Source: a virus
Strand: one strand, 5' to 3'
Virus record (IMG/VR): IMGVR_UViG_3300027791_002264
Coordinates: 6,420 to 70,419 of that record
Length of the DNA: 64,000 bases
In this document: in pieces, positions 4,950 through 57,613 of the stretch
Numbering within the stretch: the stretch's first letter is position 1
Layout of the letters: each line of letters begins with the position of its first letter
The notes under the pieces: generated by a model
Database searches by the model: none
Told to the model about the DNA's origin: nothing
The model's input: the letters and a program-made list of their open reading frames with translations, nothing else
Translations under genes and position numbers: made by a program

Positions 4950-4963
4950 CAATATTATTAAAA

Positions 4964-5037: not shown

Positions 5038-5064
5038 CAACAATTAAAATTAAATATATAGATT

Positions 5065-10887: not shown

Positions 10888-11075
10888 TGAGTAGCGCAGA
10901 AGATATAATGTATAAGGCTCATAATGAAGGTATCAGAGCTGAGGTGTTTATAGAATCACAAAAGTTAAGAGAAGAAAATCCTATGAAATATAAATACAAA
11001 GAAAATGTAGATATATTAGAAGAAGCGTATAAAATAGTATTAGAACGAAAGAATAAAAAGAATGAGAACATATAG
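10887..11075 (+). CDS. Hypothetical protein
   Basis: 62-aa coupled ORF. Confidence 0.6.
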   Translation: MSSAEDIMYKAHNEGIRAEVFIESQKLREENPMKYKYKENVDILEEAYKIVLERKNKKNENI

Positions 11076-21593: not shown

Positions 21594-22187
21594 ATGGTAT
21601 CCTTAGAAAGTATACAACAATATTGCAAAGGAAAGAAAATTATTATAGTAGGTAATTCATCTGGTTTACTCCAAAGTAATCATGGAGAATTAATAGATGC
21701 CTATGATATTGTAGTAAGAATTAATAGCGGTTATTTACAAACACAAGATTATAAAGATTCTATAGGAAGTAAAACAAATATACTTTCCATGGGTATTAAG
21801 TCAGCAGATAGGGTAGGTAATATTGTTAAAGATAATAGAGTAGATTACATTTTAAGCCCAATAATATGGAGTGATAAATTATCTTATTTTAATTCCTATA
21901 ATATAGATCCATCAATATATCATACTCTTAAATCTAATTTAGGTTCTACTAAGCCTTCTACTGGAATTAGTACTTTTAATTTCTTTAATACCCAATGTGA
22001 TTTTTTACAATTAGATTTAATAGGTTTTGACTTTTTTAAAAGTTCAACAAAAAGTAGAAATCCATTAGGCCATTTACATGTTTCAGATCACGATGGCCCT
22101 AAGGAAAGTTTATTTTTTAAGAGATATCGTAATCCTGAAAAAACAAGTTTATATTCTACTTTGTATAATAATAAAATAACATTTTAA
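21594..22187 (+). CDS. GT29 (sialyltransferase)-like glycosyltransferase
   Basis: Sialylmotif-L-like VGNS...IDAYDIVVRIN...GSKT; sialylmotif-S-like PSTG...L.GFD. Confidence 0.75.
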   Translation: MVSLESIQQYCKGKKIIIVGNSSGLLQSNHGELIDAYDIVVRINSGYLQTQDYKDSIGSKTNILSMGIKSADRVGNIVKDNRVDYILSPIIWSDKLSYFNSYNIDPSIYHTLKSNLGSTKPSTGISTFNFFNTQCDFLQLDLIGFDFFKSSTKSRNPLGHLHVSDHDGPKESLFFKRYRNPEKTSLYSTLYNNKITF

Positions 22188-22188
22188 A

Positions 22189-23721
22189 ATGATAAGTAGA
22201 AGAAGTATAAAAAGAATTGTTCATGAACCACAATCTTATGGTGATCAAAAGAAACAATTTCCTAGAGTAACTGTTAGATCTGATGGGACTCATAGTAAAG
22301 TCGTAAATTATTCACAAAGAATTAGGAGGGATCCTTTATTAGTTCCATTACCAGTTCCAATTTCTTTTTTACAAGCTCATCAATTACCAGCAATAACTAA
22401 TGATATTTGTTTTGTTGTAGGTGGTGGTCCTTCGTTGAGTGGATTTGATTTTAATTTATTATCAGGCTTTGATACTATTGCAATTAATAAAACTGTTGAA
22501 TATATCCAAAACCCAAAATATTTTATAACCACAGACTATTCATACTTTGCAAAAGGAACTTTACCAATAGAATCAATTAGACAAAAAACAGAGCATGTAT
22601 ATTTTGTAGCTAATATGACCCACCCTTACATGGAATTAAAAAATGGTATGATTACAGATACGAGAGGCCTTGTATATGAAGATCTCCATAAATGTAATGG
22701 TGTTATAGAATCAAATAATATAGAAGGTTTTAGTAATGATGTAGTTGGTTTTGCTAGTGGATCCAATAGCGGACACTGTGGTATTCAGTTAGCATTACTC
22801 TTAGGTTATAAAAAAATATACTTATTAGGATTTGATTTATCAGAAGGTGCACATACGCATTTTCATCAATCATATACAGAATTTGATAAAATACAATTTA
22901 GAAAAAATGTTGGTAATTATAAAAGAACTCTTTTTTCTGCATTAGAATCTCATAAAGGATCTCAAGAAATTATAAACTTATCTTCACAAAGTAATTTAGC
23001 CGAATCTCCTTTTATTAAAACAGAATCTTTTTATGATATAATTAATCAAGATCATTCTAATAATAAAACACTAAATGTAACACCTAATAGTAAAATACCA
23101 GCTGATGCACCACAAAATTTAATGGTAGTAGGTTACTATACAGTTAATACCCCATATGAACAAGAGGCTCAAAATTTAATTCAATCTTTAAATAGATTAG
23201 GATTAGAAAAAGATATAGTAGGTGTAAATACTTTAGGTAATTGGCAAGCCAATACTAGATTTAAAGCTAGCTTTATGTTAGATATGCTTATTAAATATCC
23301 AAACCATAGATTATTATATGTTGACTGCGATGCAGTACTTCATAAAATGCCTATTCTATTTAATAATTATAATTGTGATATTGCAGTAAGATGGCAAGAT
23401 TTTAAATGGAGAAAAAATGAATGCTTAAGTGGTACTATTTATATGGAGAATAATCATAAGACACAACGATTATGTAGATTATGGAGAGACATTAATATAA
23501 ATGAAGGGAATGCATCAACTAGAATGGAGCAGTGGAATTTAGATACTGTAATTACTACAATAAAAGGAGAGGATCCTACTTTTGCAGTAAAGAATCTTCC
23601 ACCAGAATATACTTTTATATTTGATAGTATGAAACATATATACCCAGCAGCCGATCCTATAATAGAACATTTCCAAGCAAGTAGGAGATTTAAAAACGAT
23701 GTTAATACATTAAACCAATAA
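22189..23721 (+). CDS. Fusion: MAF_flag10/DUF115-like domain plus GT-A domain
   Basis: VGGGPSL, NSG...IQLA..LGYKKIYLLGFD; second domain YVDCDA, EQW, HFQASRR. Confidence 0.7.
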   Translation: MISRRSIKRIVHEPQSYGDQKKQFPRVTVRSDGTHSKVVNYSQRIRRDPLLVPLPVPISFLQAHQLPAITNDICFVVGGGPSLSGFDFNLLSGFDTIAINKTVEYIQNPKYFITTDYSYFAKGTLPIESIRQKTEHVYFVANMTHPYMELKNGMITDTRGLVYEDLHKCNGVIESNNIEGFSNDVVGFASGSNSGHCGIQLALLLGYKKIYLLGFDLSEGAHTHFHQSYTEFDKIQFRKNVGNYKRTLFSALESHKGSQEIINLSSQSNLAESPFIKTESFYDIINQDHSNNKTLNVTPNSKIPADAPQNLMVVGYYTVNTPYEQEAQNLIQSLNRLGLEKDIVGVNTLGNWQANTRFKASFMLDMLIKYPNHRLLYVDCDAVLHKMPILFNNYNCDIAVRWQDFKWRKNECLSGTIYMENNHKTQRLCRLWRDININEGNASTRMEQWNLDTVITTIKGEDPTFAVKNLPPEYTFIFDSMKHIYPAADPIIEHFQASRRFKNDVNTLNQ

Positions 23722-23722
23722 T

Positions 23723-24412
23723 ATGATTAATAGTTATTTTGATAAAATTATATGTATAAACTTAAAGCATAGAGCTGATAGGTGGAAAGAAGTATCTCGC
23801 CAATGCCAAAGGGCAGGCATAGCAGTAGAAAGATATGATGCAATAGAAAACAATCCTATGGGCTGGGTTCATATTCCTGGTAAAGATAAAATGAATCATA
23901 TTAAACCAGAATCATGGCCAGGTGCTGCTGGGTGTATGGCTAGTCATATTAATGTATGGAAATTAGCAAAAGCTAATAATTGGAAAAATGTTTTAATAAT
24001 TGAAGATGATTGTGATTTTGTTGATAACTTACAAAATATATTTAATCAGCAAATTAAACAAGTACCTAATGATTGGGATCTTTTATATTTAGGAGGAATA
24101 CATGAAACGAGAGGTGGTCAATATATTCCTGATAACATAGCACCAAATGTATTAGGCTGCAAAAGATTAATAACCACAACATGTTATGCTATAAAAGATA
24201 CTTGTTATGATTTAGTTATTAATACAATTTTAGAAAATGAACCTAAATTTTATACAGCAGTAGATACTTATTTAGCATCAAGAGTACAACCACTAATTAA
24301 TTCATATGCATTTCATCCACCAATGGCATGGCAAAGAAGAAGTTTTAGTAATGTACAAAATGGCAATAGGGATTATTCCACTATGATGAGAGAAGATAAT
24401 ATTAAAAAATAA
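23723..24412 (+). CDS. GT25 glycosyltransferase
   Basis: INLKHRADR, GCMASH, LIIEDD, WDLLYLGG. Confidence 0.88.
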   Translation: MINSYFDKIICINLKHRADRWKEVSRQCQRAGIAVERYDAIENNPMGWVHIPGKDKMNHIKPESWPGAAGCMASHINVWKLAKANNWKNVLIIEDDCDFVDNLQNIFNQQIKQVPNDWDLLYLGGIHETRGGQYIPDNIAPNVLGCKRLITTTCYAIKDTCYDLVINTILENEPKFYTAVDTYLASRVQPLINSYAFHPPMAWQRRSFSNVQNGNRDYSTMMREDNIKK

Positions 24413-24419
24413 AAGAATA

Positions 24420-25202
24420 ATGATTACATGTAGATTACAAGGAGGAATTGGAAACTTAATGTTTCAAATTGCTTTTATAGAATATGAAGGCATGATGAGT
24501 GGTTTTAAAACTGGTTATTGGAATGTTGATCACCAAATAAACAAATGTAATGTTGACGTAGTACACAACCCTTCACTTAAACATGCAGATGAATACTTAC
24601 AAATGTTTAGAAATTTTAAGTGGCCTAGAATTAACAAACCACCATCCTCAAAAATAAATGTACCTTTTCATTTTGAAACTTTTGCAGTTAAGGATAATGT
24701 TTTATATGATGGTTTTTTTCAGTCAGAAAAATACTTTCCTAATAGAGATTTTATTTTAAATTTGTTTCAGCCATCTGATTTTGTAAAAGATAAACTCAAA
24801 AGGTATGATAATTTATTTAATAATACCACATGCTCAATTCACGTAAGGCGAGGTGATTTTTTAAAATATGATTTGCATGTAGCTAGAAAAATGGATTATT
24901 TTAATGAAGGCATGTCTGCTGTTGGTGATGTAAATAAATATCTAGTGTTTAGTGATGATATAGAATGGTGTAAGAAAAACTTTATTGGAGATAAATTTAT
25001 TTTTATAGAAAATGAAAAGGACTATGTAGAACTTTACTTACAATCTCAATGTACACATAATATAATTTCAAGCTCAACATTTTCATGGTGGGGAGCTTAT
25101 TTAAATAATAAACCAAATAGAAAAATAGTTGGACCTAATCAATGGTTTAGTAATAATAAACCAATTAATAACATTATACCTGATTCATGGATAACAATTT
25201 AA
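24420..25202 (+). CDS. GT11 alpha-1,2-fucosyltransferase-like
   Basis: GGIGNLMFQ, HVRRGDF, FSDDIEWC, STFSWWGAYL. Confidence 0.92.
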   Translation: MITCRLQGGIGNLMFQIAFIEYEGMMSGFKTGYWNVDHQINKCNVDVVHNPSLKHADEYLQMFRNFKWPRINKPPSSKINVPFHFETFAVKDNVLYDGFFQSEKYFPNRDFILNLFQPSDFVKDKLKRYDNLFNNTTCSIHVRRGDFLKYDLHVARKMDYFNEGMSAVGDVNKYLVFSDDIEWCKKNFIGDKFIFIENEKDYVELYLQSQCTHNIISSSTFSWWGAYLNNKPNRKIVGPNQWFSNNKPINNIIPDSWITI

Positions 25203-26068
25203 TTAATCTTTATACACAAAAAAGAATAGATTATTTACAAGTAAAGAAAAATTGTGAATTTTATTTAAAGGATATTAATCCTGTGGATGTTTCTATTATT
25301 ATACCTGTTATGAATAGGGAATCTTTTCATGCACCATTAGTTAAACACCTAAAGGATGCAATTATAAAACATTCAGAAAAAAGTTATTCTATTACATTCG
25401 TTGAGCATAGTGATATACCTAAGCATAAATTGTTATGTGAAGAGAGTAATACTAATTATATTTGGATAAAGAAATCTACAACAGAGCCTTTTAATAAATG
25501 CTTAGCAATGAATATTGGTTCACTCTATAGTAATTCATCTAAGTATTATCTTTTTCATGATATAGATTTATTAATGACACCAACTTATTTTATTGATATT
25601 TTTAAAAATCTTAATAGAGTTCATCCTGAATGCGCACTGCAAACCTTTGCACATCGAAGAATATTAGTAATGGATCAAATAATGAGTAGTCAAATAATTA
25701 ATGGTGTAGTATTAATAGATTCACTTACACCTGGTATTAATCCTCCTCACTCTAACCCAGGGGCTCCTGGTGGTTCTATTTTTATAAATGCTAATAGCTT
25801 TAAGACAGTTGGTGGTTATGATGCTGAGTTCTTTCATAGCTATTCTCCAGAAGATGCATTCTTTTTTCATAAGTTACAATTAGTAGTAGGTATTGAAGGC
25901 TGTAATAATCCAGTGATAGAAGCTTATCATATGCATCATCCTTATATGGGAGGATCTAATCCAGAAAAACCTAAAATGGAAGAAATTTGGAGCGAGTTTA
26001 GAAATATGCAATCTAGCAATAAGCTAAATTTTATTAATCACATAGGAGCAGAATTTAAAAAACTATAA
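25187..26068 (+). CDS. GT7/GT2-type galactosyltransferase-like
   Basis: FNKCLAMNIG, FHDIDL, VGGYD.EF..Y.PED. Confidence 0.8.
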   Translation: MDNNLINLYTQKRIDYLQVKKNCEFYLKDINPVDVSIIIPVMNRESFHAPLVKHLKDAIIKHSEKSYSITFVEHSDIPKHKLLCEESNTNYIWIKKSTTEPFNKCLAMNIGSLYSNSSKYYLFHDIDLLMTPTYFIDIFKNLNRVHPECALQTFAHRRILVMDQIMSSQIINGVVLIDSLTPGINPPHSNPGAPGGSIFINANSFKTVGGYDAEFFHSYSPEDAFFFHKLQLVVGIEGCNNPVIEAYHMHHPYMGGSNPEKPKMEEIWSEFRNMQSSNKLNFINHIGAEFKKL

Positions 26069-26070
26069 AC

Positions 26071-26739
26071 ATGAGAAAAGGATTTGAATATTTTGATAAA
26101 GTATTTCTAATAAATTTAGAAAAGCGTACTGATAGGTTACAGCAATGTAATGATATTTTTAAAGAACTTAATATATTAGACTTAGTTGAAAGATTTCCTG
26201 CAATAAAAAGACCACAGGCTGAGTATGACTGGTATATAAGTGATGGTAAAAAAATAAAGATTGGTGAATATGGTTGTATTGCTTCTCATATAAGTATAAT
26301 AAAAATGGCTAAAGCAAATGGATGGAAATCTGTGTTAGTGCTTGAGGATGATGTTAAGTTTGTTAATCATAAATACTTTAATGATTCAGTAGAACAATTA
26401 AAAGAACATGAATGGGATTTGTTTTATTTAGGTAGCAATACTCATATCCCTTTAGATAAAGTCAATTCTAATCTTTTAAAATTAAAAGAAGGTTTTGCAA
26501 CTCATGCTATTGCATATCATGAAAGATTCTATGATAAGCTTATAAAAGCATTTGATAAAAAGGCAATTGAAATAATAGATGTATGGTTAGCAGAAAATGG
26601 CCAAGAAAATGGAAATGCATATTGCACATACCCTATAACTGCTATACAAGAAAATAGCTTTAGTGATATACATAATCAAGTTATTGACTATAGTTGGATG
26701 ATAACAAAATTTGAAGATAATACAAAACATTTAAAATGA
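26071..26739 (+). CDS. GT25 glycosyltransferase
   Basis: INLEKRTDR, GCIASH, LEDD, WDLFYLG. Confidence 0.88.
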   Translation: MRKGFEYFDKVFLINLEKRTDRLQQCNDIFKELNILDLVERFPAIKRPQAEYDWYISDGKKIKIGEYGCIASHISIIKMAKANGWKSVLVLEDDVKFVNHKYFNDSVEQLKEHEWDLFYLGSNTHIPLDKVNSNLLKLKEGFATHAIAYHERFYDKLIKAFDKKAIEIIDVWLAENGQENGNAYCTYPITAIQENSFSDIHNQVIDYSWMITKFEDNTKHLK

Positions 26740-27599
26740 AAAAACATATCTATATAGCAGCCGGTGGTATATTTTCTTTAGTTATGGGAATGATTTACAG
26801 TATGAAATGGCTGAATAGTGCACTTAAAACTGATGGAGAAAATATTAAAAATATATCTTTTCAACAAAACTTAGCATGGACTTATGATAATAAAATAAAA
26901 GAATATGTAAAGATTGATAAAATGGAATCCTCCTATAATCCTGAAGATTTAAATATGATTGATTTTATTTTTGATCAACCTAAGATAACTGAAGATTATG
27001 AACGCATAAAAGGTTTTACAGGACCATGCTCCATTAAAAATTCCAAACGCAATGTAGACGTGAAAGCAGATCAATCTGATATTTTATTTTTAAGAAAATT
27101 GGCTAGAAAATTAAAATTTAATAAGAGAATGAAAATGCTTATTAAAAATGAAGAAGAAAAAATAGATTTCAATAATGCATTAGGTGTTCATATTAGATTA
27201 ACAGACATGAATGGGATTCACCCAGAGTATGGTATTCTTAATTTTAATGATTTTGAAAAAATGATTGATTTAATATTAAAAGAACATAAAGAGATTAAGA
27301 CAATATTTGTAGCATCTGACAATAATGAATCAATAAAAAAACTAGTAAATAAATATAGTAATAGAATTAAATTTATTGATTATTTAAATAGATGTGAAAA
27401 AGAATCTGAAAATTCATATGAGCTGCAATTAATAAATCATGAAAGTAAAGAATTTTGGGAACATGGATTTTTAGATATGATGATGTTAAGTAAATGTAAA
27501 TATCTTTTACATAGAACTAGCAATGTAGCTAATGCATCTTTAGTTTTTTCTGATACAATTATAAAAAGTTATAACATATCCACATTAAACAAACAATAA
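26736..27599 (+). CDS. NodZ/O-fucosyltransferase-like (GT23/GT68 type)
   Basis: GVHIRLTD, IFVASDN, D...LSKC....SNV. Confidence 0.75.
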   Translation: MKKHIYIAAGGIFSLVMGMIYSMKWLNSALKTDGENIKNISFQQNLAWTYDNKIKEYVKIDKMESSYNPEDLNMIDFIFDQPKITEDYERIKGFTGPCSIKNSKRNVDVKADQSDILFLRKLARKLKFNKRMKMLIKNEEEKIDFNNALGVHIRLTDMNGIHPEYGILNFNDFEKMIDLILKEHKEIKTIFVASDNNESIKKLVNKYSNRIKFIDYLNRCEKESENSYELQLINHESKEFWEHGFLDMMMLSKCKYLLHRTSNVANASLVFSDTIIKSYNISTLNKQ

Positions 27600-27622
27600 A
27601 AACAAACATATAATAATAAATT

Positions 27623-28033
27623 ATGGAAAAAATATATTCAAAAGTTGATCCTACTAAGCTATTACATATAATACAAAGAGTAGATGAAATAACAGAACCT
27701 AGAGTTGATTTAATACCTGAGGAACAATTTATTCAATGTTCTACTTTAAAAATGGAAAAAGGTAAAACATTTAAACCTCATAAGCATATTTGGAAAAACC
27801 GAACTAGAGATGTTATTGCACAAGAATCATGGATAGTCATAAGAGGTAGTGTTAAGTGTATCTTTTATGATATAGATGATAAAATTATTGCAACACCAAT
27901 ATTAAAACCAGGTGATGCATCTTTTACATTAGAAGGTGGTCATAATTATGAAATAATGGAAGATGATACTCTGGTCTATGAATATAAAACAGGTCCTTAT
28001 GAAGGTCAAAAATTAGACAAAACATTTTTATGA
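27623..28033 (+). CDS. Cupin-fold sugar isomerase-like protein
   Basis: PHKH, QESW, GGHNY, EYKTGPY. Confidence 0.75.
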   Translation: MEKIYSKVDPTKLLHIIQRVDEITEPRVDLIPEEQFIQCSTLKMEKGKTFKPHKHIWKNRTRDVIAQESWIVIRGSVKCIFYDIDDKIIATPILKPGDASFTLEGGHNYEIMEDDTLVYEYKTGPYEGQKLDKTFL

Positions 28034-28548
28034 AAATAGGAAAGGATGTATACATCCATGAAGATGCATGGATAAAACAAAAAGAAGGTAGTAAAATAGG
28101 TAATCATGTTGCTATTGATAAAGGCGTTCAGTTTTCTACTAAAGTAGATATAGGTGATTATGTTCATATTGCTCCTTATGTAGTAAGTGTAGGAGGAAAG
28201 GATACAACTGTTACATTTAAAGATTTTTCTTTTTGTGCGGCTGGGACTATGATAGTTGCAGGTAGTGAAGATTATACAGGAAAGGGATTAGTAGGACCAA
28301 CCATTCCTGCTAAATATCGAGAAATTATGTTTGCAGATATTACATTTGAAAAATATTCTGGTTGTGGGGTTAATTGCTGTATTATGCCTGGTGTAACCTT
28401 TGGTGAAGGTGCTATATTAGGCGCGCATTCATTAGCAACTAAAGACTTGGAGCCATGGACTATTTATATTGGTAGTCCTGCAAGACCAGTTAAGAAACGA
28501 GATAAAGAAATAATTTTAAAACATGCTAAAGAATTAGGATATGAATAA
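28030..28548 (+). CDS. Left-handed beta-helix acyltransferase
   Basis: Hexapeptide repeats; PW.IY.GSPAR. Confidence 0.85.
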   Translation: MKIGKDVYIHEDAWIKQKEGSKIGNHVAIDKGVQFSTKVDIGDYVHIAPYVVSVGGKDTTVTFKDFSFCAAGTMIVAGSEDYTGKGLVGPTIPAKYREIMFADITFEKYSGCGVNCCIMPGVTFGEGAILGAHSLATKDLEPWTIYIGSPARPVKKRDKEIILKHAKELGYE

Positions 28549-29074
28549 TATAAATTTTGAGGATAAAGATATTTTTATGCATAAGGATGCAGAGTTTAAA
28601 ATAGACCCAAAGATAGGTAACCATGTTGCTATTGATAAAGGTGTTTATTGTACAGTAAATGCAACAATAGGTGATTATGTACATATTGCACCATACGTTA
28701 CAATAATTGGAGGAAAGACTGGTGTATTTAAATGTAATGGTTTTAATAACATAATGGCTGGTGCAAGAATTGTTTGCGGTTCTGATAGATTTGATGATAG
28801 TGGTTTATTTGGAGCTATGATACCTAAAGAATTTAAAGGAAGGCAAATTATTGAACCGGTAATAATGGAAAGATTTTCTAATGTTGGAAGCAATGCAATG
28901 GTTTTACCAGGATCTATTTTAAGAGAAGGTGTTTTACTATCTGCTGGTAGTTTATTAATAGGTGATACTATTCCTTGGGGTGTATATAAAGGAAATCCTG
29001 CTAAATTAATAAAAGTAATTGACGGAAATAAAATTAAAGAAAATGCAAAAAAATTAGAGATGGGTAATGATTAA
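28541..29074 (+). CDS. Left-handed beta-helix acyltransferase (paralogue)
   Basis: Shares IGNHVAIDKGV and IGDYVHIAPYV with the previous gene. Confidence 0.85.
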   Translation: MNNINFEDKDIFMHKDAEFKIDPKIGNHVAIDKGVYCTVNATIGDYVHIAPYVTIIGGKTGVFKCNGFNNIMAGARIVCGSDRFDDSGLFGAMIPKEFKGRQIIEPVIMERFSNVGSNAMVLPGSILREGVLLSAGSLLIGDTIPWGVYKGNPAKLIKVIDGNKIKENAKKLEMGND

Positions 29075-29951
29075 AAAAACCAAGATCAATATGGGTGGTG
29101 GTGGCTTTTCACATACAATATCATCAACAGGTCTACCTACTAAATATGTTGAATGGATAAGAGGTTATGCAAGCGCTAATATAACTATACATATTGATAA
29201 TTATATGGTTGGTCGTACTGCTAGTATTTATAGAAAAACCAAAGAATATGCATGGCTTTGTGAAGCTAAATCAGTTTCATATTTTTCTAAAAGAAAATAT
29301 GTAACACTAGAAGACGGTACACCATCTTACGAGGATGAAAAGACTTCTCTTTATGAGTGGTGTAAAAACAATATACCAGAATTAAAAGAAAAATTTATTA
29401 AAGTATTCACGCATGATACTGAGTTAGCTAAAATGGATGATATTTTTCAATTAACACTATGCTCTGGTAAATCATTCTTAACAGAAGGTAAAATATATCC
29501 TAAAAGTAAATTAGTGTCTATGATTGCATCTAATAAGGTAATGTGTGAAGAACATGAGTATAGGCAAGAAATGATTGAGAAATATTCTAAATTAGGAGTT
29601 GATCATTTTGGTAGCGGTTTTAATTTTATAAAAGATAAAGCTGATGGTTTAAAAGATTATTGCTTTTCTATTGCAATGGAAAATGCAACATATTCAAATA
29701 TGTTTACTGAAAAGCTAACTGATTGCTTTATGACTGGTACTATTCCTGTTTATTATGGTATAGATAACATTGGAGATTTTTTTAATACTGATGGGATTAT
29801 AATAATGGATGATGATTTTGATATTAAGGATTTAACTGTAGATTTATATAATAGTAAGAAAGCTGCTATTTTAGATAATTATAATAGAGCACAAGATCTT
29901 TTGTGTGCTGAAGATTATATTTTTAAACAATTCATAGAACCTTCTCTATAA
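29067..29951 (+). CDS. GT10-like fucosyltransferase
   Basis: FSIAMEN...FTEKLTDCFMTGTIPVYYG. Confidence 0.8.
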   Translation: MIKKTKINMGGGGFSHTISSTGLPTKYVEWIRGYASANITIHIDNYMVGRTASIYRKTKEYAWLCEAKSVSYFSKRKYVTLEDGTPSYEDEKTSLYEWCKNNIPELKEKFIKVFTHDTELAKMDDIFQLTLCSGKSFLTEGKIYPKSKLVSMIASNKVMCEEHEYRQEMIEKYSKLGVDHFGSGFNFIKDKADGLKDYCFSIAMENATYSNMFTEKLTDCFMTGTIPVYYGIDNIGDFFNTDGIIIMDDDFDIKDLTVDLYNSKKAAILDNYNRAQDLLCAEDYIFKQFIEPSL

Positions 29952-30760
29952 TGGATAAAATTTTACAATTCCAAAAAGTATCATCGGCACACAAATTTGC
30001 TGGTGTAGGTATGGGTGGTAACATCTTTATAACTCTCAATTCTTTATTAGCTTCTAAAAAAGATGATAACTTATATGTGGATATGGAAACTAATTCTTGT
30101 GTATGTACTGAAGACGATTTTAATAAATTTAATACTAATAATTGTTGGGAATATTATTATGATCAAATGCCAAAGCCTGACACAGATAACATCGTAACTA
30201 ATAAATCTGAAAATGCATTCTTAAATTATAATAAGGTTCCTTTAGTTGATTACAGTGATTTGCAGTATAGATTTAATAACAACTTTAAATTAAAAGATTA
30301 TCTTCAGAACGAATTAGATTCTTATTATAATAATAACCTTAAAGATAAAATAACTTTAGGTGTACAAATAAGATTAACCGATATGTTACACCATCATAAA
30401 GTATCTCCTCTATCTAAATACTTAATTAGGATACAGGAAATTTTAAATAAAAATCCAAACATAGAACAATTATTTATAGCAACTGATGATCATAGAGCAA
30501 TAGAGGAAGTAAGTAAACATATAAGTATACCAATAATATACCATGAAGCTTTTAGGGCTAGTGATGATGATCCTCAGACTGATGAATATGATAGGATGCG
30601 AAATAATAGAGAATTTCATAAATATAATTTAAGTAAAGAATGTATTAAAGAAATTTATACTTTAAGTATGTGTAACTTTTTATTAAGAGCCGATGTATCT
30701 GCAATTTCAAATGTTGCTACTTTACTATCTACTAAAATTAACACACTATATAATTTATAA
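29951..30760 (+). CDS. NodZ/O-fucosyltransferase-like
   Basis: GVQIRLTD, LFIATDD, LSMC. Confidence 0.72.
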   Translation: MDKILQFQKVSSAHKFAGVGMGGNIFITLNSLLASKKDDNLYVDMETNSCVCTEDDFNKFNTNNCWEYYYDQMPKPDTDNIVTNKSENAFLNYNKVPLVDYSDLQYRFNNNFKLKDYLQNELDSYYNNNLKDKITLGVQIRLTDMLHHHKVSPLSKYLIRIQEILNKNPNIEQLFIATDDHRAIEEVSKHISIPIIYHEAFRASDDDPQTDEYDRMRNNREFHKYNLSKECIKEIYTLSMCNFLLRADVSAISNVATLLSTKINTLYNL

Positions 30761-30810
30761 TAAACAATCATCATTTATCTTATATAATATATAATAAAAC
30801 AAATTATAAC

Positions 30811-31443
30811 ATGAGCTTTGAGACTGTAACACAATTAGAAAAACAACTTGCTGAATTTTTTGGAGCACCTTATGCAGTATGTTTAGATGCATGTACTCAT
30901 GGTATAGAATTATGCCTAAGACATCAAAATATAAATACAATTACTGTTCCTAAAAGAACTTACATATCAGTACCTTTTCTTGCAAATAAATTAAACATTA
31001 ATTTAAAGTGGAGAGATGAAGAGTGGCAAGATTATTATAAAGTAAATGAACATCTTAAACCTATTTATGATGCAGCTGTTTTATGGAAAAAGGATAGTTA
31101 TATACCAGGATCTTTTATGTGTTTAAGTTTTCAATTCCAAAAGCATTTATCATTAGGTAGAGGTGGAGCTATACTTTGTGATAATAAAGAAGATGCAATT
31201 GCACTAAAGAAAATGTCATATGATGGAAGGTTACCAGATGTTCCATGGCGAGATCAAGATATTGAAACATATGGGTACCATTATTATATGACACCTGAAA
31301 CTGCTCAGTTAGGTTTAGATTATTTTGATGAAGCAGTAAAACAAAAACCAAGACAATGGACTATCACAGATTGGCCAGATTTAACAAAAATGGCAGTCTT
31401 TAATAAAAAAGAAGGAGTTGATCCTTATTTACAAACCAAATAA
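30811..31443 (+). CDS. DegT/DnrJ-family PLP sugar aminotransferase (short form)
   Basis: LEKQLAEFFG, CT.GIELCL, DAA, SFQFQKHL..GRGG. Confidence 0.8.
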   Translation: MSFETVTQLEKQLAEFFGAPYAVCLDACTHGIELCLRHQNINTITVPKRTYISVPFLANKLNINLKWRDEEWQDYYKVNEHLKPIYDAAVLWKKDSYIPGSFMCLSFQFQKHLSLGRGGAILCDNKEDAIALKKMSYDGRLPDVPWRDQDIETYGYHYYMTPETAQLGLDYFDEAVKQKPRQWTITDWPDLTKMAVFNKKEGVDPYLQTK

Positions 31444-31455
31444 CAAATTAAGAAA

Positions 31456-32448
31456 ATGAAAAAAGCATTTATAACAGGAATTAATGGACAAGATGGATCT
31501 TATCTTGCCGAGTATCTTTTAGATCTAGGATATGAAGTTCATGGAACTGTGAGAAGAAATTCTACATCAGAAAATCAATCAGCTAGGTTAACGACTGCAT
31601 ATGAAAGTGGTCAACTCACAACTCATTATGGTGATTTATCAGATCAAGGAAGTTTAGAAAGATTACTTGAGCAAATTCAACCAGATGAAATTTATAACAT
31701 AGCAGCACAGAGTCATGTAAGAGTAAGTTTTGATGTACCACAATATACAGTCCAAACAAATGCTGTAGGTGTATTAAATATATTGGAGGCATACCGAAGA
31801 GCATGCCCTACTGCTAAATTCTATCAAGCATCTTCTTCTGAAATGTTTGGTTTAACTGTTGAGGATGATGGCTTTCAGAGAGAAAGTAGTATTATGAATC
31901 CAGTATCTCCTTATGGATGTTCAAAGGTATTTGGATATAACATAGTAAGACATTATAGAAGAGCTCATAACCTACATGCTGTAAATGGAATTTTATTTAA
32001 TCATGAATCCCCAAGAAGAGGAAGTAACTTTGTAACTAATAAAGTTGTTAAAGCTGCATGTTCTATTAAATTAGGTTTACAGGATAAATTAGAATTAGGT
32101 AATATGGATTCTTATAGAGATTGGGGTCATTCTAAAGATTATGTTATAGCAATGCATGCAATGTTAAATCATGATACACCTGATGATTTTGTTGTATCAA
32201 CAATGGAAACGCATTCAGTTAGAGAAATGTGTGAGTTGGTGTTTAAATATTTAGATTTAGACTACAAGGATTATATTTCACAAAACCCTAAGTTTATGAG
32301 ACCTGAAGAATTACCTTATCTTAAAGGAGATTCAACAAAGATTAGAGAAACTTTAAATTGGAAACCAGAATATACTTTTGAATCTATGATGCATGAAATG
32401 TGTGATCATTGGATGGATGTTTTACAAGGTAAGGTGTCATTGAGATAA
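31456..32448 (+). CDS. gmd: GDP-mannose 4,6-dehydratase
   Basis: ITGINGQDGSYL, AAQSHVRVSF, YQASSSE, SPYGCSK, NHESPRRG, RDWGH. Confidence 0.96.
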   Translation: MKKAFITGINGQDGSYLAEYLLDLGYEVHGTVRRNSTSENQSARLTTAYESGQLTTHYGDLSDQGSLERLLEQIQPDEIYNIAAQSHVRVSFDVPQYTVQTNAVGVLNILEAYRRACPTAKFYQASSSEMFGLTVEDDGFQRESSIMNPVSPYGCSKVFGYNIVRHYRRAHNLHAVNGILFNHESPRRGSNFVTNKVVKAACSIKLGLQDKLELGNMDSYRDWGHSKDYVIAMHAMLNHDTPDDFVVSTMETHSVREMCELVFKYLDLDYKDYISQNPKFMRPEELPYLKGDSTKIRETLNWKPEYTFESMMHEMCDHWMDVLQGKVSLR

Positions 32449-42430: not shown

Positions 42431-43318
42431 TTGATTATGAAAATTTGCAAATTCATTACATCTGTAAACAGACCTGAATATTTAATACCAACATTAACTT
42501 CAGCTACTAAATTTATTGATTGGGGAGATCATGAAGTTGATGGTATTTTTATTGACGATATGCCTACTGATAGAAATGATAACGAAATAACTAAACTCGC
42601 AAGAGAAAATGGTTATAATCATATAGTTTTACATAAAGAAAATAAAGGTCTTTCATATACATGGGAAGAGGTTCATAAGATTATTCAATCAATGGGTAAA
42701 GATTATGATTTTATATGGCAACAAGAAGATGATATTATAATAGACAAGCATGTTAAAATAGATGATATGATTGAATATTTAAATACTAATGATACATGCT
42801 ATCAAGTACAATTAGGAAGGCAAGCTGATTGGTATTATCCTGATCAAAAAGACAGGCAAAAGAAAGAAGATGTCTTAATGAAAAATTGGAAAAATTTTAC
42901 AGTAAGTACATATTTATCACATGCATTTTCTGGATCTTATTCATTAACCAAAGCAAAAGAATTGTTTGAAGCAATGCACATGTGGAAGAATGGCGAACTA
43001 AGACCATTAAATGATAATGGACCTTATACATTCTGTGAAGGTTATTTATACCAAACTATGACATCTTATGCATTACATAAAAATAATCATGATCATTGGG
43101 GTTTTAGTTTTTATGATAATAATAAAGATATAATTACAAAACATATTGGTGAATGGACTTGGGGTGCAAGGGTTTCGAAAGAATATGTTGAAAATTCATT
43201 AAGTCAATTAGATGGTGAAACTGATGGTATGAAATGGAGAATAGAAAGAATTAAAGAAATGATTGAAAACCCAACAGTTAAGATAGATTCTCGCGGTTGG
43301 GGTAAACTTAATAACTAA
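42431..43318 (+). CDS. GT-A (GT2-like) glycosyltransferase
   Basis: NRPEYL, IDD, NKGL, WQQEDD, HIG. Confidence 0.7.
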   Translation: MIMKICKFITSVNRPEYLIPTLTSATKFIDWGDHEVDGIFIDDMPTDRNDNEITKLARENGYNHIVLHKENKGLSYTWEEVHKIIQSMGKDYDFIWQQEDDIIIDKHVKIDDMIEYLNTNDTCYQVQLGRQADWYYPDQKDRQKKEDVLMKNWKNFTVSTYLSHAFSGSYSLTKAKELFEAMHMWKNGELRPLNDNGPYTFCEGYLYQTMTSYALHKNNHDHWGFSFYDNNKDIITKHIGEWTWGARVSKEYVENSLSQLDGETDGMKWRIERIKEMIENPTVKIDSRGWGKLNN

Positions 43319-43329
43319 TAAAATACTAT

Positions 43330-43512
43330 ATGAAAATATTAATTTGGATTAAAAGAGAAGAAGCCGTTACTGGATCTATAACTAAATATTATACATACTT
43401 ACCGTTTAATGAAAGTTATCAAGAATGGGTACAAGTAGAAATAACACAAGATGAATTTACACAATTGGAGGATGATGCTGCTATGAAAGAAAGATTAATG
43501 CAAGAAAGATAA
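43330..43512 (+). CDS. Hypothetical protein
   Basis: 60-aa coupled ORF. Confidence 0.6.
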   Translation: MKILIWIKREEAVTGSITKYYTYLPFNESYQEWVQVEITQDEFTQLEDDAAMKERLMQER

Positions 43513-43916
43513 TGGAATCTATAGGAATCATAGCAGGAAATTTTGATATACTTCATCCAGGTTATATTAAAATGTTTAATGAAATGAATACTTTTGTAGA
43601 AAAGATACATGTATTATTACACATTGATCCTAGTTTGGATAGACCAGAAAAAATAAAGCCAATATTAAGTGTTTTAGATAGAACAGAAATGCTATTAGCA
43701 TTAAAAGGTGTTTATAAGGTTTCTACTTATAATAATGAAAATGATTTAAATAAATTAATACTAAAAGTAAATCCTAATATTAGATTTTTAGGTGATGATT
43801 ATATTAATAGAACCGATTACACTGGTTATTCATTACCTCCAAAAATTATATTCTTAAATAGAGATCATGGCTGGAGTACTACTAAATTTAAACAAATGAT
43901 TAAAGCAACCATATAA
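43512..43916 (+). CDS. Cytidylyltransferase-family (TagD/RfaE-like) nucleotidyltransferase
   Basis: GNFDILHPGY, KP, GDDY, STT. Confidence 0.85.
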   Translation: MESIGIIAGNFDILHPGYIKMFNEMNTFVEKIHVLLHIDPSLDRPEKIKPILSVLDRTEMLLALKGVYKVSTYNNENDLNKLILKVNPNIRFLGDDYINRTDYTGYSLPPKIIFLNRDHGWSTTKFKQMIKATI

Positions 43917-43925
43917 ATATTATAT

Positions 43926-44249
43926 ATGAATAAAGAAAATAGAATAAAATTAGCAGATAAAATATCATTTAGATTATTAGCTACCCGTGAGCACGAAGAT
44001 CATTCTTGGTTAGTTAATATTTTAAAAGTAAAAAAGGAAAAGACTACAGGATCTATAAAAAGATTTTTTAAGTTTTTCTTAATTTGGTATAGTCAACAAA
44101 TGGCAATACCTTTTTGGATTATCGGTCATGTACATTTACATTTTAATACTTGGCATGATCTTTATGAATACGGATTATCAATATTTTTACATTTAATGGT
44201 AGGTGTTGGTTTTTGGATAGATTGGAAGCAAAGTAATAAAAAGCAATAA
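43926..44249 (+). CDS. Membrane hypothetical protein
   Basis: His-rich TM segments. Confidence 0.6.
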   Translation: MNKENRIKLADKISFRLLATREHEDHSWLVNILKVKKEKTTGSIKRFFKFFLIWYSQQMAIPFWIIGHVHLHFNTWHDLYEYGLSIFLHLMVGVGFWIDWKQSNKKQ

Positions 44250-44250
44250 T

Positions 44251-45330
44251 ATGAGAATACATATACTAGGAGTACCAAGAAATGCATCAACCCCAGAAAT
44301 AGCAATGGATCCTTATGCAATGGTAAGTTATTATTTAACTACATTTTTACATAGGAATAAACATGAGGTTCATTATTATGGATTTAAAGAGTCAACAGTA
44401 GAATGCACCAAAAAATGGGTATGTGGTGATATTAATCATCATAAGAAATATAATGTAACAGAATTTGAAAAGACTCATTGGTTTGAAAGCCATGTAGGTA
44501 ATGAAATAATGTTTCAAAAAGCAACAGATTATATTTTAAAAAATTATAAAAGTGGTGATGTTATTATATCATTATGGTCTCCTCAGATTGATTTTCTTGT
44601 TTTAGGTTTTAAAGGTACAGGAATAAATCCTTTAATAGTAGATGGTCATATTGGCCATCAGCATCCAAATAAAAATACAGCTTATCATGTTTTTGCATCT
44701 CATGCTAATAGGCATTACTGTTACGGTAAACATGAGGGTGGTAGTATAAATAGAGATAATTATTGGCATGATGCTGCAATTGCACCAATAGCTAATACTG
44801 TAGATAATTTTAAGTATACAGAAAAGAAAAAAGATTATTTCTTATTTATGGCCAGATTATCAGAAGGTAAAGGTTTAGGTATATTTTTACAATTGGCTGC
44901 TCATTTTCCTAAAAAGAAATTTATATTAGCTGGTCAAGGTGAATATAATTATGAATTACCACCTAATGTTGAATTTGTTGGTTTATTAAATCCAAAGGAA
45001 CGAAAGAAATATTTAGCAAATGCTAAAGCTGTAATTTCTCCATCACATTATCCTGAGCCATTTGGTTTAACAGCAGTTGAGGCAGGTTTATCAGGAACTC
45101 CTATAATTTCAACAGATCATGGAGGTTATACTGAAACGGTAGTAACTGATTATAATGGATTTAGGTGTTCTTATTTTAATGATTTTGTAATGGCTATTAA
45201 TAATATTGATACTATAAAACCTGAAGATTGTAGAAAACACGCAGAAAAGTTTTCAGCTGAGTCTTTAATAAAAGAATGGGAAACGTATTTACATAGAATT
45301 AACAGAAGTGGATTTTATACATTAGATTAA
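44251..45330 (+). CDS. GT4 glycosyltransferase
   Basis: ARLSEGKG, EPFGLTAVEA...GTPII. Confidence 0.9.
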   Translation: MRIHILGVPRNASTPEIAMDPYAMVSYYLTTFLHRNKHEVHYYGFKESTVECTKKWVCGDINHHKKYNVTEFEKTHWFESHVGNEIMFQKATDYILKNYKSGDVIISLWSPQIDFLVLGFKGTGINPLIVDGHIGHQHPNKNTAYHVFASHANRHYCYGKHEGGSINRDNYWHDAAIAPIANTVDNFKYTEKKKDYFLFMARLSEGKGLGIFLQLAAHFPKKKFILAGQGEYNYELPPNVEFVGLLNPKERKKYLANAKAVISPSHYPEPFGLTAVEAGLSGTPIISTDHGGYTETVVTDYNGFRCSYFNDFVMAINNIDTIKPEDCRKHAEKFSAESLIKEWETYLHRINRSGFYTLD

Positions 45331-47854: not shown

Positions 47855-48018
47855 TGGGAACAATAATGGAAATGTTTGGCTGCCTATTTATTGTAGGTTT
47901 AAGTTTTGTTTTTCATTGTGTTGTTTGGGAAGATGATTGGGTTAAGAAGTGGTATTGGAAAGTATTAATAGGTGGCGGCATAATTGCAATATGCTTTGCA
48001 GCAGTATTAGGTTATTAA
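47854..48018 (+). CDS. Small two-TM protein (54 aa, not in ORF track)
   Basis: TAATG-coupled; MGTIMEMFGCLFIVG... Confidence 0.6.
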   Translation: MGTIMEMFGCLFIVGLSFVFHCVVWEDDWVKKWYWKVLIGGGIIAICFAAVLGY

Positions 48019-48047
48019 AAATGATTATACTATAATAATAAAAACAT

Positions 48048-48162
48048 GGAGGGTTAGCCAAGTGGTAACGGCGCTATACCTTTTAAGGATTGAAAAGCAA
48101 TGCTAGCTGCGCAAAGTAAATCTTAGGTATGGAAATCAGGGGTTCGATTCCCCTACCCACCA
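48048..48162 (+). ncRNA. tRNA-like RNA with ~40-nt insertion in the anticodon arm
   Basis: Acceptor GGAGGGT/ACCCACC-A (one mismatch), D-arm GCC..GGC, T-arm AGGGG-TTCGATT-CCCCT, 49 nt between the anticodon-stem strands. Confidence 0.8.
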
Positions 48163-48242
48163 GCTCTTAAATAGGTTAACACCGAACAACGAGGCGTCAA
48201 ATCTCACGCCTACAAACCGAAAGGTGGAGTTTAAGTGGAGTA

Positions 48243-48334
48243 TTGTTAATAACTTTTGAAAATAATTAGAAATTTATGGCCAGAATTGTTAAAAATTGAT
48301 TATATTTATATAATAATTAAAACAAACGGAAACT
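48243..48334 (+). promoter_or_regulatory. Early-type promoter/leader cassette (copy 1 of 6)
   Basis: TTGTTAATAAC + class A promoter + AAACGGAAA before ATG. Confidence 0.85.
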
Positions 48335-49060
48335 ATGGAACATAAAATATTTGAAGTCGGTGGTTGTGTAAGGGACGAAATCTTAGGAGTCCATACAAAA
48401 GACATCGATTTTACTTTTGTATTAAGTAATACTGATATGACAGTAGAAGAAGGGTGGAACAGAATGCTATCTATCCTTGAATCTGACGGATTTAAAATAT
48501 TCCTAAAAACACCAGACTGTTTTACTGTTAGGGCAATGTTTCCTAACGGACATGAACATGAAGGCTTAGTTGCTGATTTTGTTATGTCTAGGAAAGAAAT
48601 AGGAGTTATACCTGGAACTAGAAAACCTATATTAGAATTAGGAACATTGGAGGATGACTTAATCCGAAGAGATTTTACTCTCAATGCCTTATGTAAAGAT
48701 GAGAATGGTAATATCATAGATTTATTTAATGGAGTTGAAGATTTAAATAATAGAATTCTTAAGACTCCGTTACCTCCAATGAAAACATTAATGGATGATC
48801 CATTAAGAATGCTAAGAGGTTTAAGATTTTGCATCACTAAAGATTTTACTATTGATGATGAATTATGGAACTGTATGTTAGAGCCAGGTTTGTTATTTAA
48901 AATGAAAGATGTAGTTTCTCAAGAAAGAATCAGAGAAGAAGTTACTAAAATGTTTAAACATGATACTCTTAAGAGTTTAAATCTTTTAAGAACTATACCT
49001 GGATTGATGGAAGTTATATTAAAAGATGGAATGTGGTTAATGCCAACAACTAAAAAATAA
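48335..49060 (+). CDS. Class II tRNA nucleotidyltransferase (CCA-adding-like, no HD domain)
   Basis: VGGCVRD, DIDF, DLIRRDFTLNAL, DDPLRMLRGLRF, ERI.EE. Confidence 0.92.
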   Translation: MEHKIFEVGGCVRDEILGVHTKDIDFTFVLSNTDMTVEEGWNRMLSILESDGFKIFLKTPDCFTVRAMFPNGHEHEGLVADFVMSRKEIGVIPGTRKPILELGTLEDDLIRRDFTLNALCKDENGNIIDLFNGVEDLNNRILKTPLPPMKTLMDDPLRMLRGLRFCITKDFTIDDELWNCMLEPGLLFKMKDVVSQERIREEVTKMFKHDTLKSLNLLRTIPGLMEVILKDGMWLMPTTKK

Positions 49061-56695: not shown

Positions 56696-57613
56696 ATGAT
56701 AGAAGATAAAGATTTTACGATAGATGAAAGATACCAAGAACTCTTACAAACAATTTTAGATTTTGGTAAAGAAAAGAAAGATAGAACTGGAACTGGTACA
56801 AAATCAATATTCGGATATACAATAAGACATGATATGACTCAAGGATTTCCTTTGTTAACTACAAAGAAGATGGCTTATAAGTCAATGATAACAGAATTAA
56901 AATGGTTCTTAAGAGGAGATACAAATATTAAGTACTTACAAGAAAATAATTGTAAAATATGGGATGGTGATTATGCTAAGAGTGGAAGAACTGATGGTGA
57001 CCTAGGTCCTATATATGGAAAGCAGTGGAGAAATTGGAACGGTGTAGATCAAATTCAGGATTTATTAATACAGCTTGAAAATAACCCAGACTCAAGACGA
57101 TTAATGGTAAATGCTTGGAATGTTAATGATTTAAATAAAATGACACTACCTCCTTGCCATTATGGATTTCAAATTTACACAACTGAATTAACTCTAAAAG
57201 AAAGACAAGAAGAATTTTGTCATAAGTTAGGTAAGAGCATACATTTTGCAAAAAACTTAGAACACGACTTTTTAGATAAAGATAATGTTCCTAAAAGAAA
57301 AATATCATTAATGTGGAATCAAAGATCCGTTGATGTATTTTTAGGATTGCCTTTTAATATTGCAAGCTATGCATTACTCCTTGAGTTAATAGGAAAAGAA
57401 GCAAACATGGTACCTGATCAGCTAATTGGTAATTTAGGAGATACTCATTTATACCTTAATCATTTAGAACAAGCAAAGGAACAACTTAAAAGAGATCCTA
57501 TAATGTTACCAGAAATAGAAGTAAGTAAAGTAGATATATTAAATGGAAAGTTTGATTATGACCTAATAGGTTATGAAAGTCATCCAAGCATTAAAGCACC
57601 TTTAAGTAATTAG
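56696..57613 (+). CDS. thyA: Thymidylate synthase
   Basis: DRTGTGT, FPLLTTK, LGPIYG.QWR, LPPCH, QRSVD.FLGLPFNIASY, HLYLNH. Confidence 0.97.
   Translation: MIEDKDFTIDERYQELLQTILDFGKEKKDRTGTGTKSIFGYTIRHDMTQGFPLLTTKKMAYKSMITELKWFLRGDTNIKYLQENNCKIWDGDYAKSGRTDGDLGPIYGKQWRNWNGVDQIQDLLIQLENNPDSRRLMVNAWNVNDLNKMTLPPCHYGFQIYTTELTLKERQEEFCHKLGKSIHFAKNLEHDFLDKDNVPKRKISLMWNQRSVDVFLGLPFNIASYALLLELIGKEANMVPDQLIGNLGDTHLYLNHLEQAKEQLKRDPIMLPEIEVSKVDILNGKFDYDLIGYESHPSIKAPLSN

Follow-up and report, generated by a model that had tools for sequence, protein, structure and literature searches.

A tRNA-shaped gene and its 3' domain

The window analysed here is a stretch of 64,000 nucleotides from a virus record of IMG/VR (IMGVR_UViG_3300027791_002264, positions 6,420 to 70,419), which is 70.4 kb long and estimated to be 24% complete. 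At 48048-48162 on the plus strand it carries a gene with the outline of a tRNA and some 40 additional bases where the loop of a Lys-type anticodon is expected, and the question raised by this locus is whether it encodes a spliced tRNA-Lys or another kind of RNA. We are close to certain of the descriptive answer: positions 48048-48243 are a single gene, whose product is a non-coding phage RNA of about 196 bases in two parts, a tRNA-shaped front module and an 81-base 3' domain or tail. This two-part RNA is conserved, restricted to phages and present in a single copy per genome. A tRNA-scaffolded non-coding RNA had been one option in the earlier note on this locus, made from the sequence alone, and the conserved, covarying RNA of the relatives agrees with it. 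The limits given there (48048-48162) fit the tRNA module; the end was set too early, as the conserved unit runs to about 48243, and the 3' domain and the palindromic loop described below had been overlooked.

The front module (48048-48162, plus strand) matches the Rfam tRNA model (RF00005) end to end on the plus strand (model positions 1-71; 42.4 bits, the gathering score being 29) and has the acceptor, D and T arms of a cloverleaf. The acceptor stem (48048-48054/48155-48161) has an A.A mismatch at pair 3, which had been noticed from the letters and is flagged as a non-standard pair in the Rfam alignment; the D arm occupies 48057-48072, the T arm 48138-48154 and the discriminator A 48162, and CCA is not encoded. 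In the same alignment 48 bases stand in place of 6 anticodon-loop positions, and the next gene (48335-49060) encodes a CCA-adding enzyme, so that the initial description of a tRNA-shaped gene with an insertion at the anticodon place, upstream of this enzyme, was correct. ARAGORN called no gene at 48048-48162 with default settings and, with introns allowed, a tRNA-Lys(ttt) with a 40-base intron at position 41, i(41,40). The folding energy of the module is unremarkable (z -1.08; 26 of 200 shuffles fold equally well), and its structural reality therefore rests on pairing kept in relatives rather than on folding energy. Pairing in 43 distinct relatives (113-119 nt) amounts to 93.7% in the acceptor stem and to 100% in the T stem, where 4 of the 5 pairs changed on both sides; three pairs of the D stem are 100% paired. 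Front modules parsed from the family range from 69 to 224 nt.

Conservation continues for about 81 bases beyond the discriminator in all relatives. The 3' domain (48163-48243, plus strand) was defined from alignment A4 of 72 sequences (71 distinct), in which a four-way junction with a pseudoknot was derived by eye and then tested, and from the covariance model R1. It opens with an invariant G (48163), followed by P1 (48164-48171/48230-48237, with a U.U mismatch), the P2 hairpin (48174-48183) and the strand J2/3 (GAACAACGA, 48184-48192). P3 (48193-48197/48206-48210) encloses the loop CAAAUCUC and is joined by J3/4 (UACAA, 48211-48215) to P4 (48216-48225), which has a GAAA loop; J4/1 (GGAG, 48226-48229) leads back to P1. 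In the pseudoknot, which spans 48203-48240, the end of the P3 loop (CUC, 48203-48205) pairs with GAG (48238-48240) right after P1.

This structure is kept by compensatory changes. Standard pairs make up 94.9% of 1530 cells across the 71 distinct sequences, compared with 82.2% in shuffles, and 15 of the 24 pairs of the domain changed on both sides. None of 500 shuffles equalled the real alignment on any of five measures, and pairing fell to 34-48% when the partners were slid by 1-3 columns. RNAalifold, given no structure, recovered the same four helices. The pseudoknot is 97.8% paired and 3 of its 4 pairs changed on both sides; examples of the pair states are CG 51, UG 11, AU 4 and UA 2 at one pair, and UA 48 and CG 20 at another. 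Paired changes also mark the closing helix, which reads UUAAA/UUUAA in the window and UUAGA/UCUAA or UUGGA/UCCAA in relatives. As with the front module, the folding energy of the tail is unremarkable (z -0.86), and its minimum-energy fold lacks the helices supported by covariation.

The junction strands of the tail, together with P3, are the most conserved part of the whole unit. P3 showed no variation in the aligned sequences, which was partly imposed by the search words; a pattern in which P3 was left free gave 32 loci in IMG/VR, two of them (L069 and L074) chance matches in coding DNA, and no P3 variant. Outside the search words, the opening G and C, the UAG before P2 and the GAG before the 3' strand of P1 are invariant in 72 of 72 sequences, as is most of GAAYAACGA. 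The discriminator, which precedes the opening G, is not fixed (A 54, C 11, T 5 and G 2 among the 72 sequences). R1 found a single match in the window, at 48162-48243 with 96 bits, and none in 22 other loci, including more distant relatives of the CCA-enzyme gene. In some members of higher G+C content (L101, L115 and L137) the P2 hairpin is expanded to 42-89 bases, and in L115 and L137 the expanded P2 holds a hairpin of its own that reads CCGGAAUUAACCGG.

An extended anticodon arm with a palindromic loop

The roughly 42 bases that the RNA has in excess of a tRNA are folded onto the anticodon stem as an extended arm (48074-48132, plus strand), defined by a single-sequence fold and by pairing in the window's own clade (26 sequences). 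The anticodon stem had been described as extendable, and the fold bears this out: an 8-bp helix 1 (CUAUACCU/AGGUAUGG, 48074-48081/48125-48132) is followed by a 4-base 5' bulge at the anticodon place (UUUA, 48082-48085) and by a 6-bp helix 2 (48086-48091/48119-48124), beyond which an internal loop (GAAAA / GCAAAGUA) leads to the 3-bp helix 3 (48097-48099/48108-48110). Within the clade, the six core pairs of helix 1 are intact in all 26 sequences and five pairs of helix 2 in 25-26 of them; helix 3 is weaker, paired in 11-24 of the 26 with a shift of register. The bulge has 4 bases, or 7 in some relatives, and the opposite 3' strand is continuous. The arm thus leaves the former anticodon as a small bulge in place of an anticodon loop.

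The apical loop carries the palindromic hexamer GCUAGC (48102-48107, plus strand). In aligned columns, the hexamer at this place is self-complementary in all 43 distinct relatives (GCUAGC 19, ACUAGU 20, GAUAUC 3, GAGCUC 1; one ACUAGU copy has an additional U), and all three mirror positions changed on both sides. Longer members of the family have other apical-loop palindromes, namely UAAUUA, UGAUCA, CUCUAGAG and GUGAUCAC, which were read by eye and not counted systematically. As a hexamer in a loop of 8-9 bases is unable to pair with itself within one molecule, it is most simply read as a site where the loops of two copies pair; the palindrome therefore suggests a kissing-loop site at which the RNA may dimerise. 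Retroviral dimerisation-initiation hairpins likewise present a six-base palindrome in an apical loop; this is an analogy, and no homology is claimed. Palindromes in the hairpin loops predicted by folding were also counted (front modules, 31 of 71; dinucleotide shuffles, 101 of 1420), but this count was dropped because the UUCGAA of the T loop inflates it and minimum-energy folds often pair the apical palindrome away, and the aligned-column count was used in its place. Arms, T stem, tail helices and palindrome thus all covary in homologues, where covariation had been proposed as a check, and compensatory changes keep the helices where random decay in relatives had been named as the outcome that would speak against a functional RNA.

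At the anticodon place, the 43 relatives carry 15 versions of a 7-mer that ends in an invariant AA. The position corresponding to U33 is U in 23, C in 17 and A in 3 of them; the triplet before the AA is UUU or CUU in 22, other triplets including UCU, UAU, CUC and CUG, and the 7-mer of the window recurs in 6. Two members have front modules of normal tRNA size. In G003 the tail is fused to a 71-nt tRNA-Lys(ttt) called by ARAGORN (L207:6694-6764, Rfam 50.3 bits), which is the sole tRNA-Lys among the 31 tRNAs called by ARAGORN in two clusters; the record has 36 matches to the Rfam tRNA model, so another tRNA-Lys is possible. The second version, in L200, has 69 nt and UUU in a 5-base loop. Judged from the triplets of the 22 relatives and from these two cases, the Lys signal is real as ancestry, and the front module probably descended from a tRNA-Lys. 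The elbow of the fused tRNA-Lys of G003 is atypical, with a T loop UUAAAAU and a D loop that lacks GG.

A single-copy RNA found in phages

Close relatives were reached through the CCA-enzyme gene and a 26-base word. A 20-base word of the tail gave 25 loci in IMG/VR, and tail words occurred at no fewer than 119 loci in metagenome contigs and at none in the genomes of 185,579 prokaryote species. The RNA family is sharply defined and abundant, with one copy per genome. A BLAST search of the window RNA against 50,697 deposited phage records matched 19 records through T-arm words alone, so that the unit was found in no cultured phage, and a 1.6-kb query against phage records matched nothing other than the CCA-enzyme gene of Cellulophaga phages. 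With R1, exactly one copy of the tail was found in each of five phage records. The window's own record has 3 matches to the Rfam tRNA model; in four relatives, with 6, 7, 13 and 36 such matches, the tail abuts one of them. The unit stands alone in the window clade, and in many relatives it lies in a tRNA array directly after tRNA-Arg(tct); in the arrays of G003 and G001 the next tRNA follows 1-18 bases after the unit.

The position of the RNA changes among close relatives. Four phages have a CCA enzyme 90-93% identical to that of the window. Of these, L007 has the RNA next to the gene and L006 has it about 1 kb farther upstream; in L004 and L005 it is absent from the 3 kb upstream of the gene. 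Comparison of L004:2600-3003 with L007:2685-3005, the relatives of window 48020-48340, showed an exact presence or absence of the whole unit: L004 has no base of the RNA, yet it has the TATAA-type word that precedes the unit and the TTTCAGAATTGTTAATAAC stretch that follows it. This exact absence and the shifted position in L006 suggest that the unit behaves as a cassette that shares its ends with the RNA and can move or be lost. The CCA-enzyme gene is context and lies outside the unit, being missing beside the RNA in some relatives. It is absent from L026, where the RNA is kept, and about 2 kb away from the RNA in G001; two marine RNA libraries contain contigs in which 28 other letters connect 48242 with 49078, as expected of a relative with the RNA and without the gene. 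No neighbouring protein gene is conserved, and the downstream gene differs among relatives.

A possible role of the tail at the acceptor end

Taken as a whole, these features are best explained by a two-part RNA whose tail acts at the acceptor end and whose front module is a dimeric, non-decoding mimic derived from tRNA-Lys, an explanation that we hold tentatively, since we would give it somewhat less than an even chance. The mechanism that we favour within it, by analogy, is processing in cis at the junction between discriminator and invariant G, and it is a still more tentative proposal. The tail would act in cis at the acceptor end, either cleaving itself or marking a cut between the discriminator and the invariant G; the released mimic, which lacks CCA, would be completed by the phage CCA-adding enzyme; and the mimic, non-decoding and paired into a homodimer through the kissing loop, would engage some tRNA-binding factor of the host or the phage.

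For the unit in two parts speak the absence of the RNA alone from L004 and the one tail copy in each of the five records. For a non-decoding module speak the variation at the anticodon place among the 43 relatives and the 13 different identities that ARAGORN assigned to it. For cleavage at the junction speak the G at +1 and the C at +2, invariant in 72 of 72 sequences, next to a variable base at -1. The pseudoknot helix begins right after the 3' strand of P1, and the 5' end of the domain therefore lies at the P1/pseudoknot junction; by analogy with P1.1 of HDV-type ribozymes (named for the hepatitis delta virus), the pseudoknot may stack at the base of P1, at the point of entry of the 5' end. 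In G003, the sole called tRNA-Lys is fused to the tail, which must therefore come off if this tRNA is used. Cis-processing is favoured because of the invariant G and C, the pseudoknot at the base of P1 and the case of G003, and also because none of the tRNA-type genes of the window encodes CCA, a CCA enzyme is adjacent, and theta ribozymes provide a precedent.

Theta ribozymes are the closest concept to this RNA. In PMC10879173, these HDV-like ribozymes are described directly 3' of phage tRNAs, and the CCA-enzyme gene as 250-fold enriched in the phages concerned. In both systems a small structured RNA starts no more than one base from the 3' end of a CCA-less phage tRNA, in phages that often have a CCA-adding enzyme; G is the first base in both, and in both the P3 loop pairs with bases right after the 3' strand of P1, near the 5' end. 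The present tail differs in that P2 and P4 are closed hairpins in a four-way junction, P1' stands at the 3' end and no nested double pseudoknot is formed; in that it occurs once per genome, behind one special tRNA-like gene; and in its habitat, which is mostly marine, whereas theta ribozymes come from the gut. Compared with HDV-like ribozymes in general, G directly follows the tRNA 3' end in 72 of 72 sequences, the cleavage site being putative, and an analogous 3-4 bp pseudoknot (97.8% paired, as stated above) stands in the place of a P1.1-like helix. The strand order P1-P2-P3-P1'-P4-P2' was not found: the order here is P1-[P2 hairpin]-[P3 hairpin]-[P4 hairpin]-P1'-tail, and P1' is separated from P3 by J3/4, P4 and J4/1. 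Flavivirus exonuclease-resistant RNAs also contain a junction in which a P3 loop pairs with the strand after P1; again this is an analogy, and no homology is claimed.

Several points weigh against processing in cis. An HDV-like fold is ruled out by the strand order, and the 3' domain alone, searched against Rfam at E<=10, gave a single chance match of 7.4 bits and no ribozyme family. P3 and much of the core are invariant partly because the searches required them. Since one tRNA-like gene per genome carries the tail, this is no general device for tRNA maturation, and members in which a plain long hairpin replaces the D and T arms before the tail (L133 and L030, read by eye) fit a job for the intact RNA better than tRNA maturation. 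A CCA enzyme was found in only two of the four other records, which are 65-78% complete. Contigs from RNA libraries (records 2 and 3 of X1 and record 11 of X2, with at least 31 letters on each side) run uncut across 48162/48163; this argues weakly, as these are assembled contigs that hide minor forms and the libraries may contain DNA, so that neither transcription nor an absence of splicing or cleavage follows from them. Cleavage, dimerisation and CCA addition are all putative steps, proposed from sequence comparison.

A more specific form of the proposal, and a clearly less probable one, sees the tail as a self-cleaving ribozyme of a new class, whose four-way junction and pseudoknot would place the scissile bond at the base of P1 and which would mature the dimeric, non-decoding mimic derived from tRNA-Lys. 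Large marine phages might then use the mimic against a host defence directed at Lys-tRNA, or to capture some host factor that binds tRNA. Should the tail cleave, a further ribozyme fold would be gained, and tRNA 3' ends made by ribozymes would be known from a second, independent case.

Comparison with other phage RNAs

RNAs of the tRNA clusters of phages whose functions are unknown have long been recognised, species 1 and 2 of T4 being the classic case, and we know of no function for these two. They offer the closest context for the RNA described here: rnaD (species 2, 119 nt) and rnaC (species 1, 139 nt) lie directly after tRNA-Arg in the T4 tRNA cluster, as many relatives do. The likeness is one of context alone, as they share no sequence or model similarity with it and R1 had no match in the T4 locus (L204). 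In T4, rnaC (L204:909-1047) ends in a T arm and an acceptor-like stem and matches the tRNA-Sec model weakly (17.5 bits, E 0.76); together with its position after rnaD and tRNA-Arg, this implies that the stable RNAs of T4 are also framed by tRNA features.

ROOL and GOLLD RNAs are homo-oligomers, held together partly by covarying kissing loops, according to bioRxiv 10.1101/2024.12.08.627333. By the same account they are encoded by phages and prophages, often near tRNA islands, and their function is unknown, which they share with the present RNA. They differ from it in being several-fold larger than about 196 nt; the RNA described here has a tRNA-shaped module and no match to their Rfam families, and its oligomerisation is proposed from one palindromic loop. 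A search of Rfam over 47900-48400 at E<=1 returned tRNA and no other family, be it a ribozyme, a riboswitch, ROOL, GOLLD or tmRNA (transfer-messenger RNA). In the literature we found no description of the RNA and in Rfam no family for it: its 14-base core word occurred in no paper, and an 11-base word occurred in 10 papers, whose titles all concern unrelated topics. Nor was there a match in six supplementary files of a catalogue of 10,006 viral candidate RNAs (PMC10690425), the rest of which may list the family unnamed. The conserved knotted tail and the self-pairing loop suggest, on comparative grounds, a function for which we found no published description. Three of its features lend themselves to bench tests: the covarying pseudoknotted junction at the acceptor end, the covarying palindromic loop and the anticodon presented as a bulge.

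Alternative explanations

The main rival to cis-processing is that the intact RNA serves as a decoy or sponge, and we consider it possible but on the whole unlikely. PrrC, RloC and PARIS-type systems are tRNA-directed defence nucleases, and some phage tRNA variants evade anticodon nucleases. As a look-alike of tRNA-Lys, neither cut nor charged, the RNA would bind such a host nuclease or another tRNA-binding factor; its anticodon would be locked in the bulge, and the pseudoknotted fold would cap the acceptor end against 3' exonucleases. A decoy for host nucleases that cut Lys-tRNA is kept under consideration because of the Lys-type triplets in 22 of the 43 relatives, followed by the invariant AA, and because the one normal-sized version called by ARAGORN is a tRNA-Lys(ttt). 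The single copy per genome also favours it, as does the retention of arm, palindrome and tail in members devoid of D and T arms; the contigs that cross the junction uncut add weakly to this. However, the triplet is not conserved, with 15 different 7-mers in its place, the conservation of the tail's core goes far beyond the needs of a mechanical cap, and no defence system or partner was identified; the fused tRNA-Lys of G003, being the only one called there, argues for a use in translation in that phage. If the RNA indeed stays whole, it would be a compact natural tRNA mimic with a built-in handle for dimerisation, relevant to counter-defence against tRNA-cutting systems.

Next comes the view that the 3' domain is itself the working small RNA, for instance a fold that binds a ligand or a protein, with the tRNA module as a handle for processing and stability that RNase Z and RNase P would cut away, as happens in other tRNA-linked small RNAs; we regard it as improbable. 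In its favour, conservation within the unit is highest in the junction strands and P3, front modules vary widely in size (69-224 nt), and in G003 and G001 the next tRNA, 1-18 bases away, would define the 3' end. A plain tRNA would be enough as a handle, yet nearly all members keep the elaborate arm with its conserved palindrome. There is no conserved neighbouring protein gene, and no riboswitch-like position is kept, as the downstream gene differs among relatives.

An intron-bearing tRNA-Lys(UUU), made into a decoding tRNA by removal of a 40-base insert, is very unlikely. Removal of 48088-48127 does leave the Lys-type loop CUUUUAA, as the earlier note had stated and as the ARAGORN call with introns allowed reproduced, and the same 7-mer recurs in 6 of the 43 relatives. 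The insert is also, as stated there, far too short for a group I intron (about 42 bases versus some 200 or more), and over 47900-48400 no intron family of Rfam matched at E<=1. The RNA nevertheless departs from a canonical tRNA-Lys(UUU), with which it shares the acceptor, D and T arms and, in the window, in 22 of the 43 relatives and in the G003 fusion, the Lys-type triplet: it has no 7-base anticodon loop, U33 is not conserved, about 42 structured bases are added, and a fixed 3' domain follows. A decoding tRNA would show a seven-base loop, U33, a purine at 37 and the same anticodon in orthologues, which is not what was observed. Run with introns allowed on 117 distinct family members, ARAGORN reported genes in 92 and gave the module 13 labels (Leu, Ser, 'Stop', Thr, Ile, Trp, Tyr, Pro, Val, 'Pyl', Lys, Glu and Gly); the call for the window itself was unstable, Lys(ttt) in one run and Leu(taa) in another. 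Annotators should be aware that tRNA finders in intron mode mislabel this RNA as many different intron-bearing tRNAs, suppressors ('Stop', 'Pyl') among them.

The structure of the insert and the gene content of the phages point in the same direction. A bulge-helix-bulge, which the earlier note had drawn with a polarity opposite to the archaeal one, would have two 3-base bulges on opposite strands around a 4-bp helix, whereas the fold supported by covariation has one 5' bulge and a continuous 3' strand; an insert with conserved structure and a covarying palindrome is unlike a spacer that is discarded. A search for splicing and repair enzymes, of the kind suggested as a check, found neither a tRNA-intron endonuclease (PF01974) nor RtcB among the phage genes of any of five records (24-78% complete), and RNA-ligase matches were below the cut-off and confined to one of the five. 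G001 and G002 have a separate, ordinary tRNA-Lys(ttt) a few genes away. Among the RNA-library contigs, which drop rare forms, none listed had a joint that skips 48088-48127; record 2 of X1 bridges the left edge of the insert, and records 2 and 3 of X1 and record 11 of X2 its right edge, with at least 31 letters on each side. A spliced tRNA-Lys was rejected as the main explanation because of the variable anticodon, the scattered identities, the single bulge, the lack of endonuclease and RtcB in these records and the separate tRNA-Lys(ttt) genes. Two further candidates were set aside. One was tmRNA-like coding, as no reading frame or stop is conserved across relatives; the other was a class II tRNA with a long variable arm, as the added bases are located within the anticodon stem and do not follow it.

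That the locus is a tRNA pseudogene in decay, or an element that acts as DNA (such as an attachment site or a protein-binding palindrome) without RNA function, is extremely improbable: presence or absence among close relatives (L004 and L005 versus L007) and palindromes that are also restriction-site-like DNA words would suit it, and against it stand the compensatory changes in seven RNA helices and the pseudoknot across more than 70 distinct sequences, the strand-specific matches of the tRNA and R1 models and, weakly, the coverage by RNA libraries.

Gene setting of the RNA in the window

The window has a G+C content of 30% and a gene content typical of a large phage, encoding a tmRNA, two tRNAs, a split type II topoisomerase, a sigma factor, ClpB/ClpP, PhoH and many glycosyltransferases. 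Contigs from marine metatranscriptome libraries are identical to the window over, for example, 396 and 199 letters with zero differences, and the source phage is therefore marine. A TATAAT-like hexamer (48031-48036, plus strand), a possible -10 element, lies 12 bases before the first base of the RNA, and a TATAA-type word is kept at the same spacing in relatives; a sigma-70 scan did not list the hexamer as a full promoter. In the window clade, where the RNA stands alone, no intrinsic terminator of the unit was found. The tRNA nucleotidyltransferase (CCA-adding enzyme) gene downstream (48335-49060, plus strand; 241 aa) was identified by Pfam PolyA_pol (5.4e-18) and by the PHROG tRNA nucleotidyltransferase (8.3e-63), and a promoter-like site at 48286-48314 belongs to this gene itself. 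None of the small open reading frames neighbouring the RNA was named by PHROGs.

The phage tmRNA gene (4529-4875, tag DNAELAMAA) is separate from the RNA gene. It belongs to a cluster at 4529-5038, in which a tRNA-Gly with the unusual anticodon ACC follows at most 2 bases after the tmRNA and is itself followed by tRNA-Ala(UGC). None of the three encodes CCA, and CAA follows each.

Two other parts of the window attracted our attention. A large glycosyltransferase block (21594-32448 and 42431-45330) contains families 29, 25, 11, 10, 2 and 4-like, together with a GDP-mannose 4,6-dehydratase, an aminotransferase, hexapeptide acyltransferases and a SIS-domain protein, a sugar-building cluster that is unusual for a phage. 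Two genes of the thymidylate synthase family (11062-11943 and 56696-57613) are also present, one canonical (1.5e-92) and one divergent (3.3e-22); the divergent gene adjoins dNMP kinase-like (deoxynucleoside monophosphate kinase-like) and ATP-grasp genes, which may point to the synthesis of a modified base.

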